Source of the DNA: a virus
Lineage: Duplodnaviria > Heunggongvirae > Uroviricota > Caudoviricetes
Virus record (IMG/VR): IMGVR_UViG_2541047868_000004
DNA length: 39,543 bases
Strand: one strand, 5' to 3'
The translations under genes were made by a program, and so were the position numbers. The notes under the pieces were generated by a model, which made no database searches, had not been told where the DNA came from, and saw only the letters and a list, made by a program, of their open reading frames with translations. Below are positions 1 to 11,820 of the stretch, piece after piece (position 1 is the stretch's first letter; every line of letters starts with the position of its first letter).

Positions 1-1158
1 ATGCTCACCGTTAAGCAGATTGAAGCAGCAAAGCCGAAAGAAAAACCATACCGCCTACTCGATGGTAATGGCCTGTACCTTTATGTCCCTGTGTCAGGGA
101 AAAAGGTATGGCAGCTTCGCTACAAGATTGACGGTAAGGAGAAAATCCTGACCGTAGGAAAATATCCGCTAATGACTTTGCAGGAGGCAAGAGATAAAGC
201 ATGGACCGCGAGGAAAGACATCTCGGTTGGCATCGATCCGGTAAAAGCGAAAAAGGCTTCGTCTAACAACAATTCCTTTAGTGCCATTTACAAGGAATGG
301 TACGAGCACAAGAAGCAAGTCTGGTCAGTAGGCTATGCAACTGAACTTGCCAAAATGTTTGATGACGACATTTTACCCATCATCGGCGGTCTTGAGATTC
401 AGGATATTGAGCCGATGCAACTGCTGGAAGTAATCCGCAGATTTGAAGATCGCGGTGCAATGGAGCGAGCCAACAAAGCCCGCAGAAGATGCGGCGAGGT
501 TTTCCGTTACGCTATTGTCACCGGCAGGGCTAAATATAACCCGGCACCTGACCTTGCTGACGCCATGAAGGGGTACCGCAAGAAGAACTTCCCGTTTCTT
601 CCTGCAGACCAGATCCCGGCATTCAATAAAGCACTGGCAACATTTTCAGGAAGTATCGTATCGCTCATTGCCACCAAGGTTTTACGCTACACTGCCCTAA
701 GAACGAAAGAGCTTCGTTCCATGCTATGGAAGAACGTCGATTTTGAAAACAGAATTATCACCATCGACGCCAATGTGATGAAGGGACGCAAAATTCATGT
801 GGTCCCGATGTCAGACCAGGTGGTTGAACTTCTCACTACGCTAAGCTCAATCACCAAACCAGTATCAGAGTTTGTTTTTGCCGGGCGCAACGATAAGAAG
901 AAGTCAATCTGCGAGAACGCGGTACTGCTTGTGATCAAACAAATCGGCTATGAAGGTCTGGAAAGCGGTCACGGATTCAGGCATGAATTCAGCACGATTA
1001 TGAACGAGCACGAATGGCCTGCTGACGCTATTGAAGTGCAACTGGCACATGCCAACGGCGGATCTGTGCGAGGGATTTACAACCATGCTCAGTATCTCGA
1101 TAAGCGCAGAGAAATGATGCAGTGGTGGGCGGACTGGATTGATGAAAAGGTGGAGTGA
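1..1158 (+). CDS. int: Tyrosine integrase (P4/IntS-like site-specific recombinase)
   Basis: 385-aa ORF starting at the window's first ATG; recalled as near-identical to E. coli IntS-type integrases that sit next to tRNA-Arg argW; catalytic domain at C-terminus. Confidence 0.9.
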   Translation: MLTVKQIEAAKPKEKPYRLLDGNGLYLYVPVSGKKVWQLRYKIDGKEKILTVGKYPLMTLQEARDKAWTARKDISVGIDPVKAKKASSNNNSFSAIYKEWYEHKKQVWSVGYATELAKMFDDDILPIIGGLEIQDIEPMQLLEVIRRFEDRGAMERANKARRRCGEVFRYAIVTGRAKYNPAPDLADAMKGYRKKNFPFLPADQIPAFNKALATFSGSIVSLIATKVLRYTALRTKELRSMLWKNVDFENRIITIDANVMKGRKIHVVPMSDQVVELLTTLSSITKPVSEFVFAGRNDKKKSICENAVLLVIKQIGYEGLESGHGFRHEFSTIMNEHEWPADAIEVQLAHANGGSVRGIYNHAQYLDKRREMMQWWADWIDEKVE

Positions 1159-1294: not shown

Positions 1295-3469
1295 TCATTT
1301 CACCACCCAACCAGAATTCCAGCGACCTGATTCTTTGATGTAGAGTCTTCCATTTACGATATCTCGATACTCGCTTCCAGGTGTGGCTATTTGTACTCCT
1401 TCAGGATTTCCAGTGCCAGCAATTATACTGTAACTAACGTCTGTGGCTAAATTCCTAACAATGTTAGCAGGAGGGTAAACGTTATCTGCAACAATAATAT
1501 TTGAGCAACTTGCTGTTACATCTACAAAAAACTCATTGCTTATCGAGTTGTGATAACAGTTGTTACTAATCACACCATTTTTAGCAGATGAATCAATACC
1601 TATAACTGCGTCTCCAGCTACAGATTCAAATGAATTTGATGTCACAGTGAATCCGTGGCATTCGCAGTTAATATGGACAGCTCTTCTTCCGTTCATTGCT
1701 GTATTACCTACAATTGATATGTTTCTACTTAACAAAGTTCCTTTGTATTCGCCATCATCCTCAAATATATAGAATATCGCCTTAGCCGTATCAACTTTAT
1801 TGTTGCTTGCAATCACATTAGCAATGTAATTCCCTCTAAGGAATATCCCATTACATGAATCGACTGTGTTTCCAGTGATGGAAACTCCGTCAACCCATCT
1901 CATATCAAGAATGAAGCCATCACAGGACTCAAAATTATTTCCTGATATCCTCCAGTCTCTGTGAAATATTCTACTACCTTCCAATCCGCTCTCAATAAAT
2001 GTTGGTGTAAGGCATGATATCACAGACTTTCCAGTGCAATTTTTAAATGTATTATGATGTATACACACATCTCTTGATGTTTCCCGAAGAGTTGTGCTTA
2101 CTTTCCTCCCGGTAAATATTATTGCTGGATTAGTGAAATTTATAAATGTGTTTGAACCAATGTCAACATTTTCCCACCTAGAAAAGCCACGAATGCCAGA
2201 ATAAGAATTACCATCAAAAGTACAATGGTGGATTTTTATATCAATAACTGGCTGCGCTCCATCTGTTGAACCGTGATTCCCTACGCCAACAGCCCATGAC
2301 GGTAGAGATTCTGACGGTCCAAAATAACAACCAGACACTTTAATGCTAGCGATATTATCATTGCTGGACAATGGTGTTTCAATCTGAATAGCATCTGAAA
2401 AACCTCTGTTACCTGCCCAATCCATAAACCCCATAAAACGGCAGTTTTCAATATTAACATTTCTCACGCGAGACAAGTCTATAGCATGCGCCCCTGAAAC
2501 ATTAAGGAATGTGCAATCCCGAAATATAATCCCATTAGTAAAAACAAATTCAAATATACTGGCTTGGTTTTTGTATATATTGCCATTGTTATTAAAAACA
2601 CCACCAAATACAGATATATTATTACCACATTCGACTTCAGATGTGTATATGCAAGCAAATGTATTTACACCTGTGTCTGAATTATCAAAAGCACGAATAA
2701 TAGTTGCACCTCGTAGATGTAAACTTGTGTTTGAGTATATCATTATTTTTTTTGTTATTTTTATAAGCCATTCACTACGAAAAGTTAAATTCAAACATCC
2801 GTTTATCTTTGCGATATTTAAAGCATTCTGTAAGGCATCGCTATCGTCGCTTACACCATCACCTGTAACCCCAAACCATGACGGTGAAACCTCATTCCCG
2901 TAAACCCTCTTCCACCTTCTACCGTTAAAACCTACAAGAATTGTTCCGTCATTATCTTCTGATGTCGTATCTGTTGGGTCAGCATAGAACACCCCATCAC
3001 CGCCATCGAACAAATTATTTCTTCCATAACAGATTATTTTGTCATTTGTGCCATTATATGAACGTATGTCTGTATAATTACCACCTCCTAAATACGATAC
3101 CCCGTCAATCTGATTTAGTTTCTGCTGAAACATGTCTGGATCATACTTCAGCACATTAGGAAAATAGAATTGCTGCGCACCATACGCATCATAAACAGCC
3201 ATAGAATGGCCTTGCACAGTTACGAACTTGGCAATCTGTCCGTTATATACCGGATATCCAGCAGCGTTAATGATGATTGGTTGAGAAACAGGAACGTGAG
3301 ATCCATCTTCGTTCTCTACATAAACCTGAATCTGGTTTTCAGGATTTACCGGGTCAGTATCAATTTTACCAATATAAATTTTGCCATTGGCTACAGCTTT
3401 AAAAGAACGAGCCATAGTGAAGAGTTGCGAAGGCATACTCACTACAACATTGGCTGTAATGTCTGTCAT
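1295..3469 (-). CDS. Tailspike protein: P22 gp9-like N-terminal head-binding domain plus divergent beta-helix receptor-binding domain
   Basis: 724 aa; first ~110 residues ([11 protein letters not shown]...[15 protein letters not shown]...NVLKYDPD) closely match the P22 tailspike head-binding domain; the remainder is Gly/Asn/Ser-rich, consistent with a parallel beta-helix. Confidence 0.85.
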
Positions 3470-3537
3470 TTAATTTGCTCCAGATACAAGGAATCGCCGC
3501 AGCATTGCTACAGTGATGCATTATTAATCAAACAAAG

Positions 3538-3553
3538 AGACCACTGTGGTTTT
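3538..3553. promoter_or_regulatory. Mnt-operator-like palindrome (AGACCACTGTGGTTT) between tailspike and mnt
   Basis: Palindrome ACCAC-T-GTGGT seen in sequence; resembles the P22 Omnt core (CCACGGTGG) recalled from literature; lies in the divergent promoter region. Confidence 0.5.
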
Positions 3554-3615
3554 ATTGAGGATGCAACCAGCAGATAATAAGATGCCGATCCACTCACAAA
3601 AGCGAGGCATCAAGA

Positions 3616-3867
3616 ATGGGAAGAGATGACCCGCAATTTAATCTGCGGCTACCTTACGAATTAAAGGAAAAACTAAAACAGCGAGCCAAATCCAATGGCC
3701 GCTCTCTTAATTCAGAATTAGTTCAGATAGTGACTGATGCTGTATCAAAGCCATCCAAAATTTCAGGCTATCGAGACGATGCGGAACGCATCGCTGATGA
3801 GCAGTCCGAACTTGTTAAGAAGATGGTGTTTGATACGCTGAAGGATTTGTACAAAAAACCCACCTGA
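3616..3867 (+). CDS. mnt: Mnt repressor (ribbon-helix-helix, Arc/MetJ family)
   Basis: 83 aa; strong similarity to P22 Mnt including C-terminal ...DAERIADEQSELVKKMVFDTLKDLYKK. Confidence 0.85.
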   Translation: MGRDDPQFNLRLPYELKEKLKQRAKSNGRSLNSELVQIVTDAVSKPSKISGYRDDAERIADEQSELVKKMVFDTLKDLYKKPT

Positions 3868-3883
3868 TGGTGGGTTCCATTTA

Positions 3884-4303
3884 TTAGTCGTGCTTTGTTG
3901 ACGGTATAAGGGATGCATTTGCCTCTTTAGGCTTCAAGGTATACATCCCACCATTAAATGGATCTACAGCAAGCCAACCAATTAACCCACCAAACACAAG
4001 GTTTCCACCAATATACCAACCATTAGCATTGGCTTTGATTGGCAGGGTAACTGGTTCGTACCCATCCTTCTCCATAGTGATCTGGTAGCTCTTTTTGCCA
4101 AAATAACTACCATCTGACTTGGCAAGAGTTACTCCTTGCGGGGTCTTACCTTGCGCAACAATCACGCCTGATTCGTCTTTTACCTTAAAGCTCGCACCGG
4201 AAGGATTGCTGTTCACTTGCACAAGCTGTGTTTCGTCACCAACAATAGTTGCGCACCCAGATAACAATATAGCGCCAGCAACGACGCCGATAATCCTCTT
4301 CAT
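3884..4303 (-). CDS. Putative lipoprotein (moron)
   Basis: 139 aa; signal peptide with lipobox LLSGC; SD GGAAAG upstream; occupies the position where P22 carries sieA. Confidence 0.6.
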   Translation of the reverse strand: MKRIIGVVAGAILLSGCATIVGDETQLVQVNSNPSGASFKVKDESGVIVAQGKTPQGVTLAKSDGSYFGKKSYQITMEKDGYEPVTLPIKANANGWYIGGNLVFGGLIGWLAVDPFNGGMYTLKPKEANASLIPSTKHD

Positions 4304-4437
4304 ATTACTTTCCGTTTTGTTAGAATCAGAAAGATCTTAATAATAAAAAGTATTTTCGTGAAGATATTGTCGATTGAGTTAATAACTCATTTACACCCAA
4401 CAGTGCCATGATGGCAAAGATAAGGAGAGTTAATCAT

Positions 4438-4962
4438 ATGAAAAAATCACTGTTAATTATCCCGCTTCTGCTGGCAGGGTGTGCAAAGGTTAGCGACTAT
4501 CAGGCAAGTTGCGAACAACGCTATCCAAAGCTTAGCGATATGGCTAATTGCCTTGATGCTAGCGTGAAGAGCGACTCACGCATGGCATCAGCACCAACAC
4601 CTAAGTTATATGTCCTTGCTGCGAAGATGCTCGGGCAAGGTGTCGATGATGGCAAGATAAGTGACGCGCAGGCAAGACTTGAGCTTCAGAATCTTTATGT
4701 TCAATTACAAAGCCAAGAACAAGCCCAACAAATAGCACAAAGCCAAGCATTCCAGCAGGCTTTATTGAATTATCAGGCTGTAAACACAATGCAAGCTATC
4801 GAGCAAAAAGCGCGCCAGCCTGTTATAACTCAACCTTACCCAACACGCGTTGACACTTCACAAACTGCAATTCAGGGTTTGGAAATACAGTCACATGCAA
4901 CAGTAGCAGTAACATCAGATAACAATCAGCAAAGGTATCGCCTATGCAGAGGGATACGATAA
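4438..4962 (+). CDS. Putative lipoprotein with Gln-rich central region (moron)
   Basis: ORF 4408..4962; likely start at ATG 4438 (MKKSLLIIPLLLAGC) preceded by AAGGAG; lipobox LLAGC. Confidence 0.55.
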   Translation: MKKSLLIIPLLLAGCAKVSDYQASCEQRYPKLSDMANCLDASVKSDSRMASAPTPKLYVLAAKMLGQGVDDGKISDAQARLELQNLYVQLQSQEQAQQIAQSQAFQQALLNYQAVNTMQAIEQKARQPVITQPYPTRVDTSQTAIQGLEIQSHATVAVTSDNNQQRYRLCRGIR

Positions 4963-5012: not shown

Positions 5013-7010
5013 CTATTCTGACAACGCATCAGACTTAGCCCCCTGAGTAAGGGCGTTAATGGCCTTTTGCGCCTGCTGCATGGCTTTCTCAAACGCTGTT
5101 GATCCGCGTGGGGTGTTTGCCATTCGGAGCATTGCATTTCTGAATGGCTCGCTCTCATAGGCGCGAGTAAGAAGTCCGTAGCTTACTGCTGCGCCAGTTG
5201 TAGCCGGGTTCATTGCCGTCCCATACCCAATTATGAACGGGATAGTTTGCTGCCCTGTGGGTGTTGTTACTGCCGCTTTTGCAGCCTGCTGCGTGGATTG
5301 CAGGTAGTTTTTTAATCCTTTCAGATAAGCAGCGTCCTGCCCCTTAAATGTGATGCCAGTCTGGTTTTGCAGGATGTTAAGCTGCCGAAGGAACTGGTCA
5401 GGGGATCCGCCAGATTTCTCCATCGCCTTTCCAATGATGCCATTGCGCATTTGCGTCCTGCCAACACGACCAACTGAGTTATACAGAGTCTTAATTTCCG
5501 ATTTGTTCTTGCTGAATAGCATGTTGTTGACAACTTCCGGCGTCAGGTCGCCTTTCATGAGAACATTCTTCAGCCTGGTATTCTTTAGTTTCGCCGCTTC
5601 GTCAGCGTAGACGGCATTGGCCTGCTGATATTTACGGAGAGTATCGTTGCCAAGATTCTGACCAATGGCACCATTGATATCGTCGGTCATTGCCTTGTAA
5701 ACGCGCTGAATGGCAGCATCGGAACGGTTTGGTAACACTGGTCGCTCACCTTTCACGTCCATTCTGAACTGGCTGCGCAGGTCGCTTAATTGCTTCAAAT
5801 CCAGATTTACCGGACCATCAGGACCAGCATTGCGAACAAGTTCATCACGATATGATTGAAGTTTTGAAATAGTCTCGTTATCAGCAACCTTACCAAGCTT
5901 CTGCAGGTTAGATATCTCAGTATCAATCTGCTGAATTGCTCGCGCAGGCTGGATATTGACTCCCGCCATTGCATTCTGAACCTGCTCAAGACGGTTCCCT
6001 GCAGCACGACGAATTCCTGATGTTTTCGCTTTAAGGCTGTCAATAACAACAGCTGGATCATACTCACCGAATTTATCAGCAAATCTCTGCACCAACTGGC
6101 TTCTCGCTTCCTGTTGCGTTGCTCTCATTCCGCTTGTGCCAGCCAGGGGGATATTTTCCGCTGTCGTCTGCGCCATTTTCCCGACGCGGGAAGTAGGCTG
6201 TAACAGGTCTGTGGTGTGCAGAGGAACTCCTTCACGCTCTGCAAATCTGATAGCCTGCTGCGCTTCTGGCGCAATAGCACCACTAACGCCACGATAAGCA
6301 GCACCTAATCCACGTCCAGCAGCGTTAATAGCGCCGCCTGCCAGAACGCCAACACCTAAATCGGTGGCGAGGGCTTCCGCATCATCTTTCGCACTATTTG
6401 CAGCAAGTGACCCGACTGCGTTTTCAGCGAGAAGGCGAGTTGCACCCTGAGCGATTCTACCAGCGAGTGTTGGTGCCTGTGTTGCCGCTCTCTCAATGCC
6501 AGCAGGAGTGAGGTAAGGCAATGCCTCAGCAAATACCCTGCCCTCTGTAGTTTGTGGAGTCAGCGCGCCTTGCTGAAGGCCAAAGTCCTGCTCTAATCCC
6601 TGCGTTGTTACTCGTGGCGCTGGGTGATATGTCCCATCGCCAATTCCGAGTTTACCGCCAGCCCAAGCCGCCGCGCTTGTTACAGCATCGGCAACTGATG
6701 CAGGTATGTTTGCCACGTTCACGCCAGCCTGCACCAGTCCGCGACCAGTTTCTTTCACGGCTTCACCAAGATCAGACATAAATCCACTTTGCTGTGGTTG
6801 TTGCTGTGCTACTGGTTGCTGTGTATCCACTGGCTGCACAGATGGCAATGGATAGGCAGCATAGAAAGCTTGCTTAGCCTGCTCTGCATTTTCTCCGGCT
6901 TGCGGGGCCACGACTTCATTGAAGTATTGCTCCTGAGCCTGCGCTTTTTGTTCTGGTGCTAACGCCTGATACTGTGGAGAGGCGATAACATCTTTCCATG
7001 CTTTAGCCAT
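5013..7010 (-). CDS. Ejection (internal virion) protein, P22 gp16-like
   Basis: 665 aa; last gene of the gp7-gp20-gp16 triplet by order; Ala/Gly/Gln-rich low-complexity composition. Confidence 0.7.
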   Translation of the reverse strand: MAKAWKDVIASPQYQALAPEQKAQAQEQYFNEVVAPQAGENAEQAKQAFYAAYPLPSVQPVDTQQPVAQQQPQQSGFMSDLGEAVKETGRGLVQAGVNVANIPASVADAVTSAAAWAGGKLGIGDGTYHPAPRVTTQGLEQDFGLQQGALTPQTTEGRVFAEALPYLTPAGIERAATQAPTLAGRIAQGATRLLAENAVGSLAANSAKDDAEALATDLGVGVLAGGAINAAGRGLGAAYRGVSGAIAPEAQQAIRFAEREGVPLHTTDLLQPTSRVGKMAQTTAENIPLAGTSGMRATQQEARSQLVQRFADKFGEYDPAVVIDSLKAKTSGIRRAAGNRLEQVQNAMAGVNIQPARAIQQIDTEISNLQKLGKVADNETISKLQSYRDELVRNAGPDGPVNLDLKQLSDLRSQFRMDVKGERPVLPNRSDAAIQRVYKAMTDDINGAIGQNLGNDTLRKYQQANAVYADEAAKLKNTRLKNVLMKGDLTPEVVNNMLFSKNKSEIKTLYNSVGRVGRTQMRNGIIGKAMEKSGGSPDQFLRQLNILQNQTGITFKGQDAAYLKGLKNYLQSTQQAAKAAVTTPTGQQTIPFIIGYGTAMNPATTGAAVSYGLLTRAYESEPFRNAMLRMANTPRGSTAFEKAMQQAQKAINALTQGAKSDALSE

Positions 7011-8311
7011 TAATCACCCCATAGTGAAGAAAAATTACTGCCAGTAGTAGGTTGTTGCGCTGGCGTATTCTGTACTGGCTCCTGATAATCAAACTGTTTT
7101 TTAACAGTGCTCAACTTGCTTTCAAGCTGATTTCTAATCTTTCCGATAGAGTCACGAAAAGCCTTTTCACTCATTTTGGGGCTTAGGGCACCAACCGCAT
7201 CGGATAATTTTTTACCCTCAGCATCTGAAAGAGCGCCCATACCCTTCAGGGACTGCACCATAGGAAGGAATGTTTGAGCTTTAAAGGTGTCGAGCCTTGC
7301 TTCAAAGTTAGCCGCATCAGAGCCAGGGACTGTCGGAAACGCTGAGCGAATTCCTACTGCTTTTGAAAGGCCGGGGCTTTGCTCTATCTCGTTGAGAGAA
7401 TCAAGCGCGGTGCTGAACGTATCAACTGCACCCTGAGCGGCGGCCTGCCTGTCAGCGCGGGCTATGTCAGCCTTTTGCCGAACATCTGCCTGTTTCTGTT
7501 TTAGCTCTTCAAGCTTTAACTGATTGCTTTCTCTGGCTATCTGTCTGTCCAGAGCCTTTTCTTGTAATTCTGCTCTTTGTATTTCGCGGGAAAGAGCAGC
7601 ATTCTGTGCGCTGATGTTCTGTCCACGTATCTGGATGTCCTGACCACGCGCTGTTAGTGCTTCTCCAGCCTGATTGCTGCGGATTGTCTCTGTCAGCCTG
7701 CCTCGGTCAATTTCACGACCAGCCATCTTGTCCTGAACATTGAAGTAATCAATCGGACCAAGAGCAGCCATTCCAAGGTGATCAACAAACTCACCAAATC
7801 CTGAAGGGTTCTGCTGATACATCTGAGCAACGCTGTTAGGGTCAACACCGACGCGAGTCAGTTCCTTGGCGTTGTTTTGCAGCCATGATTGCATCGCTTC
7901 TGGAGACGATGCCGCAAGGCGAGCGCCAGCCGCTAAGGTGCCGATAGAATTGCGCTGGTCTTCGTCTGTCCACTTCATACCAGACTGAATCTTCTCTAAT
8001 TGACCAGGATATTTGGTCATCAGATCTCGCACCTGCTGTCGATCACCTGACTGGATGGCTGCCGCATATTCTTTTTGGAATGCAGCATCCGCTTCCTGTT
8101 GCTTTGCGGCTTTATATGTTTGAGCGACACTACCAAGTCCCTGCAACGCCTGAAGGCCGATGTTATTGCGACCTGAACGCTCCATTTCGTTGTTCTGGCG
8201 AATATAGGCCAACGCCTCACTTACATCACTTGCCTTTGGCGCATTTGAGTTTTGCCCACCGATACCAGCAAGAAAACCGCCTGAGTTGATTCCTTGTTGC
8301 CAAGTAGCCAT
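7010..8311 (-). CDS. Ejection protein, P22 gp20-like
   Basis: 433 aa; position between gp7-like and gp16-like; coiled-coil-rich. Confidence 0.65.
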   Translation of the reverse strand: MATWQQGINSGGFLAGIGGQNSNAPKASDVSEALAYIRQNNEMERSGRNNIGLQALQGLGSVAQTYKAAKQQEADAAFQKEYAAAIQSGDRQQVRDLMTKYPGQLEKIQSGMKWTDEDQRNSIGTLAAGARLAASSPEAMQSWLQNNAKELTRVGVDPNSVAQMYQQNPSGFGEFVDHLGMAALGPIDYFNVQDKMAGREIDRGRLTETIRSNQAGEALTARGQDIQIRGQNISAQNAALSREIQRAELQEKALDRQIARESNQLKLEELKQKQADVRQKADIARADRQAAAQGAVDTFSTALDSLNEIEQSPGLSKAVGIRSAFPTVPGSDAANFEARLDTFKAQTFLPMVQSLKGMGALSDAEGKKLSDAVGALSPKMSEKAFRDSIGKIRNQLESKLSTVKKQFDYQEPVQNTPAQQPTTGSNFSSLWGD

Positions 8312-9452: not shown

Positions 9453-10402
9453 TGCTCCGCAATGATTTTGATGGTTGTGGCAGTAAACGCCGCACCATTC
9501 GACTGAATGGTTAACGTACTGCCATTTGTGGCAAGAAAGCCGTCTTTATCCACGCTGAAGAACGTAGCTAACAGGATGTTATCGGTCGTTGTCGCCGAGT
9601 TGCGGCTGCTTACCAGTGTGTCAGGAACAGAGCCGGAAAAGGTTAGCTGCATTGACCTGTTGGCTGTTCCGCTGGGCCACGTCCCGACGATCGCCAGCTT
9701 GAAGAACAAGGTTTTGTTCTCGTTGAACACAACCATCTTGTTGTTAACGGTGTCGAAGAATGGTGCCAACGTGCCGGATGACGGCGTGAGCGTTTTCAGT
9801 AGGCTAACAAGGTTGGTCGGCGCTGTTGGAATGGTTACTGATACTCCTGAGTAAACAACCTCTGATTTCTTGCGCGTGGTGGCATACTCAAGCGCAGATA
9901 TTCTTGTTGAGTGATCACCAACTGTGCTTTGTAGCGTCGAAATACTTCCCTCTGCCGCTGTGAGCCTGGTATCAAGTGCGTCGATATCAGTTGTATTCTG
10001 AGTTATGCGCGCATCATGGTTTGCTAACTCAGATTCATTGGCAGCAATTCGCGTCTCGTGATCAGCCAGCTCTGTTTCAGCAGCCGTAATCCTTGTTTCA
10101 TGATCTGCAAGAGTGCTTTCCGCTGCTGCAATTCTATTTTCATGATTGATGAGAGTTGCTTCAGCAGCTTCAATTCTGGATTCATGGTCTGCAAGGGTGA
10201 CATCCTGCTCATCATTCTTCACCTGTGCATCATAAGCCCCCTTCCCTGCTTCGTTGGCCTTGTTAGCCACGTTACCAACATCAGTGCCCTGTGCGATAAC
10301 GTAAAGCAGATACGACTGCGAGAAGATATTGCGTGGAAGGACTGATGTGTCGAGTCGTGTAGTCTGAATGATTACCGGCTCATTGAGATTCGAATCAGCC
10401 AT
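9449..10402 (-). CDS. Tail needle protein (P22 gp26-like) with extended C-terminal domain
   Basis: 317 aa; central trimeric coiled-coil heptad repeats ([35 protein letters not shown]...), followed by a ~140-aa Thr/Ser-rich C-terminal domain. Confidence 0.8.
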
Positions 10403-11820
10403 TACTCAATCCTTATCTGGCAGCCAGACAGAGTGACAGGTGACTTCGTGATAACGCGCAATTTGAAGCCGACATTTTTCCTGATTCGCCCGACACGCTT
10501 CCACAAAACGCGTTTGTCGTAAACGAACGGTTCATTCTGCTCAATCATCTGCTCACGCCCGTAATTGATGCCGTCAGTAGTTGCAGAGAGGAACAGGCGG
10601 TCAGCATACTGCGCAACGCCAGTTGAAGATTCAACTTCAAGGTCGAAAACTCTGGCGTTATCCGCTTTGAACAACGGAGTAAACAGCAGGTGTTCCTGTT
10701 GCTTGTCGTACTGGCTGCTGATATCGAATTGCAATTTCCCGGTCACGGACTCCAGCTTATCGCCGCACGTTATCTGATTGCCTTCGTAAATGAAGTCGAT
10801 AGCGCGGTACACATCGTCATACAGGCCTGTTTTCAGCACACACCATTGCGGACCATTGGCACTTGAAGATGCGTCGTACACGAGGACGTGACGCGGAAGA
10901 TGGATAATCAGCAACTCATGCGCATCAAACCGCAACGATTCCATCACGCCATCAGCCAGTTCATCAGCAGTGTAGGAGCGTAGTATTTTCTCAATGCTCG
11001 CGCTGGCGATTGGTGATACCTGACCGGAGCCGATGATATACACAGACGGCGCACCTGTTGCCGGATTGCTGATAAACGCATAGGAATCAGCAAACGGCGT
11101 TTTGCAGTAAGTTCCGGCGATGCCTTTTTGCACCATCAGCGATGGCTGTGCGACATACAAAGCAGCACCAACGGTGGTTGCACCAGTCAGGGAAAAATAC
11201 TCAATCGTCGATGAACCAAAACAGACGATGAAGTCTCGCCATGTTCCGATGCCGATGATGCCGTCAGGCTGAGACTCAGCACGATATTGTGCGCTGTAAC
11301 GGTCAGGATGTGATTCGTCTTCAAGGTCAGTGATGAACCATGAATCAGTACCATCTTTTGACCACGCATAACGCCCACGTAAGCGAGTAATGTCGCGAAC
11401 TGAACCTAACTCATACTGCGTGAATCCACTGTCTGTAGGCCAGTTTGAGACGGTTTTAACCGTGCCATCATAACGATACTCGACCAGTTGACCATTAACG
11501 CCTACAGCCTGTGATGTTCGACCATGCGCCATTGATACGCGACCACTTCCGGCGACGTCACCGACTTCACTTTCTCCTTTGTAGAGCTTCCCACCACACA
11601 CACGATAAACAGCATTCTGCGCCATGTTGTACTCGACGCCGCGCGATACACCGTTCACATCAGAGCGTTTGGCAATGCCCGGGAATGAGCGAAGATATCC
11701 GCTGCTGTTCAGGATTTCTTTGGGTGTAGCCAGCATATTCACTGGCAGATAGTCGATATAGTCGGCATTTCGGAAGTCTTTGCCGACACCTTTCATGAGC
11801 GGAAGTTGCTGAATCGGCAT
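10402..11820 (-). CDS. Tail accessory factor, P22 gp10-like
   Basis: 472 aa (P22 gp10 is the same size class); order gp4-gp10-gp26. Confidence 0.75.

Follow-up and report, generated by a model that had tools for sequence, protein, structure and literature searches.

Two separate lipoprotein morons at the sieA position of a P22-like coliphage

What occupies the place of a superinfection exclusion gene in phages that lack it? In P22-like phages, sieA always lies between genes 16 and 9, but it is carried by only 22 of 66 such phages (Leavitt et al., PMC10883804). The SieA protein of P22, a family with types A, B and C, is an inner-membrane superinfection exclusion protein. The question is raised by a 39,543-nucleotide (nt) stretch of viral DNA, IMG/VR record IMGVR_UViG_2541047868_000004 (the window), which represents a P22-like (Lederbergvirus) coliphage. 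An earlier note on this DNA had described, at the sieA position, two divergent genes for lipoproteins of 139 and 174 amino acids (aa) with the lipoboxes LLSGC and LLAGC; both open reading frames (ORFs) were found and are here called lipoA and lipoB. The 1.6 kb around them is 99.0-99.5% identical to Gally, a prophage of E. coli LF82, and to vB_EcoP-720R6. The proposed position also stands, since the genes in the P22 record run in the order 16 / sieA / orf59a / mnt / arc / ant / 9 and the flanking mnt and gp16 matches in the window agree with it.

We find that lipoA and lipoB are two separate moron cassettes, unrelated to each other and acquired independently, forming neither an operon nor a pair. 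lipoA is a roaming moron that was inserted between mnt and lipoB and brought a bidirectional terminator with it. lipoB is a specific occupant of the slot, lying tail-to-tail with the gp16 gene and oriented like sieA in P22.

Lipoprotein signals and predicted folds

Both proteins begin with a lipoprotein signal, defined by a basic n-region, a hydrophobic h-region and, inside the N-terminal ~25 residues, a lipobox of the form [LVI][ASTVI][GAS]C. The lipoA N-terminus reads MKRIIGVVAGAILLSGC followed by AT (MKR...LLSGC17) and that of lipoB reads MKKSLLIIPLLLAGC followed by AK (MKK...LLAGC15), and the lipobox is conserved in 112 of 120 lipoA relatives and 83 of 90 lipoB relatives. The alanine at position +2 predicts Lol-dependent sorting of both proteins to the outer membrane, where they would face the periplasm. 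No transmembrane segment was predicted in either protein beyond the signal peptide (Kyte-Doolittle maxima of 1.3 for lipoA and 0.47 for lipoB). The plus-strand ORF that holds lipoB spans 4408-4962; as the sequence upstream of about -35 varies between loci, conservation does not reach the ATG at 4408, and the conserved start is the ATG at 4438, which gives the 174 aa and is preceded by the ribosome binding site AAGGAGAG at about 4423-4430. The Gln-rich region that the note had seen in lipoB was recovered as well, with 30% Gln at residues 85-130.

Judged by their substitution patterns, lipoA and lipoB are real genes under strong purifying selection, dN/dS being 0.045 between lipoA and its epsilon34 counterpart and 0.05 between lipoB and that of VSe13. 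For more distant pairs the synonymous sites are saturated, and dN was 0.13-0.30 down to 60% identity and 0.68 for the lipoB copy of L191, which is 37% identical. Relatives of the two genes are spread over many Enterobacterales genera.

lipoA belongs to phrog_6823 (E 9.2e-86, residues 1-139 of 139), a function-unassigned family with more than 728 members in Enterobacterales, and is 97% identical to gp15 of epsilon34, whose gene 15 had already been noted in 2008. An AlphaFold2 model (predicted local distance difference test, pLDDT, of 80) gave a confident beta-sandwich formed by residues 25-93 and strands at 121-131; its interruption at 95-116 is a hydrophobic, Gly-rich and conserved segment, NGWYIGGNLVFGGLIGWLAVDPFNGGM. 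A low-confidence helix at 95-112 overlaps the most conserved stretch of the family (NGWYIGGNxVFGGLIGWLxVDPFNGGM), with a mean Kyte-Doolittle value of 1.3, under the typical transmembrane threshold. The fold, as modelled, is a transthyretin/PEGA-like beta-sandwich; the match to Pfam PEGA (PF08308) reached 17.6 bits against a gathering cut-off of 20.8. PEGA/transthyretin-like (carboxypeptidase regulatory-like) domains lack the conserved Gly-rich hydrophobic insertion that precedes the last two strands of lipoA.

lipoB belongs to phrog_6067 (E 4.4e-100, residues 1-159 of 161), again a function-unassigned family, which it matches end to end up to a frameshift discussed below. The intact protein combines a helical bundle, a Gln-rich helix or linker, a Pro-rich stretch and a C-terminal hairpin. 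In the structure model, a four-helix-bundle domain covers about residues 18-96 (pLDDT 82-90) and contains the conserved Cys25 and Cys38, and the Gln-rich helix or linker spans about 97-125. The C-terminal Cys-hairpin motif, TTxCxxxGNxxxCxS(Y), is kept in far-removed members of the superfamily as well. With an exhaustive profile search the family grew to 229 representatives, none of them named, and those sampled had the same architecture; a Pfam scan of 10 sequences from the widened family returned no significant match.

Distribution and transcription of the two cassettes

The genomic contexts of 80 lipoB loci and 80 lipoA loci from IMG/VR (160 related loci) were counted. Both genes were present together at only 10 of the 80 lipoB loci and 17 of the 80 lipoA loci, and the 5426 complete E. 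coli genomes include 124 with lipoA, 186 with lipoB and 25 with the entire 1.6-kb arrangement. In epsilon34, lipoA stands beside an hkcB-like gene, and in VSe13 lipoB stands beside another small gene. The genes thus assort independently, and the earlier note's description of them as a pair does not hold for a unit. A two-component exclusion module, or one of the toxin/immunity type, in which the divergent lipoproteins cooperate, would fit their adjacency, their divergence from one common 134-nt control region and their co-induction in Gally, but it is hard to reconcile with the IMG/VR and E. coli counts or with the other partners of each gene in epsilon34 and VSe13. A functional pair was rejected on the co-occurrence counts and is considered highly improbable.

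The two genes also carry the marks of morons: variable presence in otherwise collinear phages, a terminator of their own and a shift in composition, with a guanine-plus-cytosine fraction of 0.42-0.45 at lipoA and lipoB versus 0.48-0.55 in the ejection genes. The terminator consists of AACCCACC, the loop TGAT and GGTGGGTT, with an A-run on one side and TTTTTTGT in the minus-strand reading, and the epsilon34 annotation places a Rho-independent terminator at the same site. Homology with epsilon34 stops 10 nt upstream of the lipoA ATG and homology with VSe13 starts 17 nt upstream of the lipoB ATG, so that the mosaic joints hug the coding sequences. Between them, the core of the control region (4314-4420, 107 nt) was found only in phages that have both genes. 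Weak sigma-70-like sites occur in 4304-4437, where a promoter scan was not above chance (3 sites versus 2.8 expected). The lipoA/lipoB intergenic region also holds a near-palindrome, GAGTTAATAACTC, at 4376-4388, which could be a regulator binding site.

The two cassettes have very different ranges. Members of the lipoA family occupy the slot between gp16 and mnt in P22-like phages, but its relatives were also found between the tail chaperone gene T and the tape measure gene of HK97-like E. coli prophages (L007-L011, 6001-6414), between gpI and gpJ in lambda-like tails (L182-L183, 6001-6414), with 68-78% identity at these two positions, and just upstream of the tape measure gene in Proteus siphovirus prophages. 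In the HK97 record itself (L192), the position between T and the tape measure gene and that between I and J are filled by gp15 and gp22, each labelled 'moron product'. In four of the HK97-like prophages with a lipoA relative (L007, L009, L010 and L011, at about 10261-11424), the tail operon holds a further outer-membrane moron, a porin gene (Pfam Porin_1/Porin_4) inserted between M and L, both of which are minor tail genes.

lipoB, in contrast, keeps to one position. A gp16 homologue adjoins it in all 80 IMG/VR loci, and the same adjacency was seen in Serratia, Tatumella (two species), Providencia and an Enterobacteriaceae metagenome-assembled genome, while in Morganella lipoB is the sole gene between gp16 and the tailspike. 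It was gp16-adjacent in every Enterobacterales context examined, even where gp16 is only 25-47% identical, and the position is kept down to 37-60% identity of lipoB itself. In 41 of the 69 lipoB loci with mnt, lipoB follows mnt by 50-100 nt on the same strand, and the distant L191 relative (6753-7429), located between mnt and gp16, overlaps the mnt stop codon by 4 nt, which points to an mnt-lipoB operon. This arrangement suggests that lipoB is co-transcribed with mnt, which is expressed in lysogens.

Transcription could be followed in Gally, because Misson et al. (2023) re-analysed RNA-seq data from LF82 and give values for the Gally genes in their tables S1 and S4 (PMC9928086). Gally is 99% identical to the window at the locus, and by coordinates GALLYPH_14 (LF82_139) corresponds to lipoA and GALLYPH_13 (LF82_138) to lipoB. 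Expressed as log2(fpkm+5), where fpkm denotes fragments per kilobase per million, lipoA stood at 6.2 and 4.8 in stationary lysogeny broth (LB) cultures, at about 10 in samples B1/B6, taken from the S1 caption as cultures in Dulbecco's modified Eagle medium (DMEM), and at 11.0 and 9.4 after 1 h and 6 h in macrophages, a 14-fold rise at 6 h versus LB (q 1e-31; PMC9928086). The values for lipoB were 6.3 and 6.0 in stationary LB, about 8 in B1/B6, 10.3 at 1 h and 8.6 at 6 h in macrophages, a 6-fold rise at 6 h versus LB (q 5e-27; PMC9928086). The adjacent gp16 gene stayed at background, 3.6-4.15, in all conditions (PMC9928086). As lipoA and lipoB rise while gp16 does not, their transcription from the prophage is autonomous, and the lysogen transcription independent of late genes that is expected of morons is thus seen for both.

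Neighbouring genes and state of the genome

The features of the region are collected in Table 1.

Table 1 Features at and around the slot between gp16 and mnt in the window
Feature	Positions	Strand	Evidence
Integrase	1-1158	+	
Tailspike, P22-type head-binding domain, outer edge of variable gp16-to-tailspike region	1295-3469	-	Pfam Head_binding E 1.8e-66
mnt (Arc/Mnt-type repressor), bounds slot on one side	3616-3867	+	Pfam Arc E 2.8e-22, Repressor_Mnt E 2.2e-18
Bidirectional intrinsic terminator hairpin, common to convergent mnt and lipoA	3857-3876	.	Terminator scan and sequence
lipoA, 139 aa, lipobox LLSGC (Cys17), Ala at +2	3884-4303	-	
Divergent control region, 134 nt	4304-4437	.	
lipoB, 174 aa as frameshifted here, lipobox LLAGC (Cys15), Ala at +2, Gln-rich	4438-4962	+	
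lipoB 1-nt deletion site	4858/4859	+	DNA alignment with Gally, VSe13
gp16-type DNA ejection (transfer) protein, convergent with lipoB, other slot boundary	5013-7010	-	phrog_770 E 2e-238
gp20	7010-8311	-	

Neither arc nor ant gave a tblastn match in the window, and the immunity I region is cut down to mnt alone (3470-3867). The target of Mnt here could be the former Pant, now reading into the tailspike gene. In Gally, mnt is 40-fold induced in macrophages and its deletion has no phenotype (PMC9928086).

The earlier note had called this genome a prophage. However, a distance of 136 bp separates the end of int from the stop of the tailspike gene (1295), which is the order of an excised or circular phage, whereas the LF82 prophage, in its integrated state, has these two genes at opposite ends. 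The window is therefore probably a phage or viral contig and not a prophage in situ. The first 115 aa of the tailspike are 96% identical to the head-binding part in Gally and vB_EcoP-720R6, but the lengths differ (724 aa here, coding sequences of 2400 nt in Gally and 2946 nt in 720R6), suggesting different receptor-binding domains and host O-antigen specificities despite near-identical neighbours. One complete E. coli genome, NZ_OZ038590.1, has ISEc52 inserted within the homologous 1.6-kb region.

Exclusion and its alternatives

Is lipoB, then, an alternative to sieA? lipoB and SieA were mutually exclusive in every locus examined. Queries with type A SieA (P22) and with type B SieA, recovered from prophage HS1 (ECHS_RS01600, motif FNRYPGEARKFNK), gave no tblastn match in the window or in the 160 lipoA/lipoB loci, and the SieA motif FxRYPxEAxxFNK was not found in any of the six frames of the window. 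This pattern of alternative occupancy fits functional replacement, and equally fits simple cassette exchange. The likeness to P22 SieA lies in the shared slot between the homologues of genes 16 and 9, in expression from the prophage and, for lipoB, in an orientation that converges with gene 16 and matches that of mnt. In contrast, SieA is a multi-pass inner-membrane protein, while the two lipoproteins are secreted, lack transmembrane segments and the SieA motif, and have no sequence similarity to SieA; if they exclude phages, they would act at the outer membrane or in the periplasm, and SieA at the inner membrane.

Other phage proteins offer partial parallels. Cor (phi80/N15/HK022) and Llp (T5) are likewise small phage-encoded outer-membrane lipoproteins, which inactivate FhuA, and Cor is likewise expressed from the prophage by a moron gene in the tail-gene region. 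However, lipoA and lipoB are 2-3 times larger, have other predicted folds and show no homology to Cor, whose models match nothing but the signal peptide (phrog_1119, E 0.0034, residues 1-20; NF047972, E 0.19, residues 1-30, with 11.7 bits where the cut-off is 31). lipoA relatives fill the two slots that HK97 gives to gp15 and gp22, in all cases as autonomous single-gene cassettes in tail operons, but gp15, at 62 aa (a 189-nt coding sequence), is unrelated in sequence to the 139-aa lipoA. HK97 gp15 is reportedly a membrane-associated exclusion protein. Epsilon34 gene 15 and phrog_6823 are the same family as lipoA, and phrog_6067 is the same family as lipoB.

Scans of Pfam, NCBIfam and PHROGs returned function-unassigned families, the sub-threshold PEGA match and the signal-peptide-only Cor matches, with no other PHROG family at E<=0.1 beyond those reported here. 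PADLOC-DB v2 contained no match for lipoA or lipoB at E<=1. Fold searches gave generic beta-sandwich and helical-bundle matches only, Foldseek against BFVD gave none for lipoB at E<=0.001, and profile searches against PDB sequences gave nothing meaningful. Neither protein matches a known housekeeping lipoprotein, a result that the earlier note would have counted against its proposal had there been such a match. The literature held nothing relevant on the protein accessions, the locus tags or PEGA-domain prophage lipoproteins. Both families are already catalogued as function-unassigned, and prophage lipoprotein morons in a variable slot are of a familiar kind.

Position and expression, on which the proposal is based entirely, suggest tentatively, at somewhat below even chances, that lipoA and lipoB protect the lysogen against superinfection, working on the periplasmic side of the outer membrane. 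In this reading lipoB would disturb the trans-envelope conduit that the ejection proteins gp7, gp20 and gp16 of incoming P22-like phages form or, alternatively, would lock the secondary Omp receptor of these phages as Cor and Llp do FhuA; in either case it would stand in functionally for the inner-membrane SieA without being its homologue. The part of lipoA would be to modify the envelope or a receptor more broadly. lipoB is the stronger exclusion candidate, because it is specific to the slot, limited to P22-like elements, oriented like sieA and exclusive with it, while lipoA is weakened as a candidate by its promiscuity and its presence on chromosomes and more probably modifies the envelope or a receptor in a general way. 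The fuller version of the proposal, in which lipoB represents a new exclusion class that blocks assembly or docking of the conduit as a SieA substitute and lipoA a second exclusion lipoprotein of broader range, shared by podovirus and siphovirus prophages, is regarded as rather doubtful.

Several observations weigh against exclusion. One is that neither protein resembles Cor, SieA, HK97 gp15 or any PADLOC family in sequence or in fold, and the exclusivity with sieA may mean no more than that cassettes replace one another where recombination is frequent. The wider families of both genes include non-phage chromosomal members, for example lipoA members at such sites in Enterobacter and Xenorhabdus and a further distant lipoB relative that is chromosomal and lies outside any phage, as would fit a general envelope role. 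lipoB alleles that are 97-99% identical adjoin different gp16 types, so that lipoB shows no visible matching to particular ejection proteins. Misson et al. also class Gally as free of morons (PMC9928086). In LB, the two genes stood at 3.3 and 4.5 times the prophage background, with values of 70 and 51 against 78 at the 5-fold cut-off (PMC9928086); the absence of morons reported for Gally is thus explained by lipoA and lipoB falling just under a cut-off applied to LB overnight cultures. A final point is the frameshift in the window's own copy of lipoB.

Other roles are conceivable for the two genes. That they are lysogenic-conversion or host-fitness factors of the Bor, Lom or SlyB type, which would change the robustness of the envelope or the interaction with a host and be switched on in host-like conditions, would accord with their 6- to 14-fold rise from stationary LB to macrophages and their already high level in DMEM (PMC9928086), with the make-up of lipoA, in which a beta-sandwich goes together with a lipid anchor and a hydrophobic helix resembling a Gly-zipper, with the movement of lipoA among unrelated prophage types and to chromosomal sites, and with the chromosomal relative of lipoB. 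However, LF82 without Gally survives in macrophages as well as the wild type (PMC9928086), the text of an in-vivo CRISPR interference paper gives no fitness signal for GALLYPH_13 or 14, and a general host-fitness gene would hardly be expected to stay, as lipoB does in Enterobacterales, in a single slot beside gp16 in one phage type; this explanation, the main rival to exclusion, is possible, though we consider it rather unlikely. A role in the lytic cycle, either Llp-like masking of receptors against loss of phage to debris or an envelope or spanin-like function, is less probable still. T5 Llp, a phage outer-membrane lipoprotein with a dual role, offers a precedent, and lipoB has a weak PHROG match to an Rz-like spanin (E 0.08) in the signal-peptide region only. 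Against such a role, the transcription of lipoA and lipoB runs counter to the late operon or lies outside it, both genes are on in uninduced lysogens while late genes are at background, and most P22-like phages lack them, with 3 and 5 distinct phages carrying the genes among 50,697 phage records.

A different possibility concerns the window alone, namely that its lipoB is a decaying pseudogene, or that the deletion is a sequencing or assembly error, leaving lipoA as the only functional gene of the two. Relative to other copies, an A is missing between 4858 and 4859 (ACACTT^CACAAA versus ACACTTACACAAA elsewhere). The deletion is absent from Gally, from VSe13, from all 80 IMG/VR copies, which match residues 1-161, and from the full-length E. 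coli matches, where the genome rows listed span 526 nt for a 525-nt query; none of about 270 other lipoB copies inspected has it. The frame is lost at codon 141, so the ORF of ~174 aa described by the earlier note does exist, but its length is an artefact of the deletion and the normal length is 157-161 aa. The native tail of 21 residues, YTNCNSGFGNTVTCNSSSNIR, contains both conserved Cys and would end at the TAA at 4920-4922; its place is taken by residues 141-174, 34 unrelated residues read in the wrong frame. Because the lost Cys-hairpin motif persists even in distant superfamily members, this copy of lipoB may be inactive. Yet residues 1-140, including the helical domain, are intact, the shifted frame stays open for 34 codons, and the weight given to the tail is drawn from its conservation only; we put the chance of a decayed or misread lipoB at about even.

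If exclusion by lipoB is real, its significance would lie in the spread of the problem that it addresses. About one third of P22-like phages carry sieA and roughly two-thirds do not, and lipoB, conserved across many Enterobacterales genera, is the most obvious candidate for exclusion in another cell compartment. In the phages without sieA it would then be one functional stand-in, and the finding would become considerably more interesting should lipoB prove to be a periplasmic SieA substitute. Independently of this, lipoA and lipoB are among the most strongly transcribed Gally genes of LF82, a Crohn's-disease isolate, in DMEM or macrophages and, as Gally was reported to be without morons, they represent overlooked candidates for lysogenic conversion.

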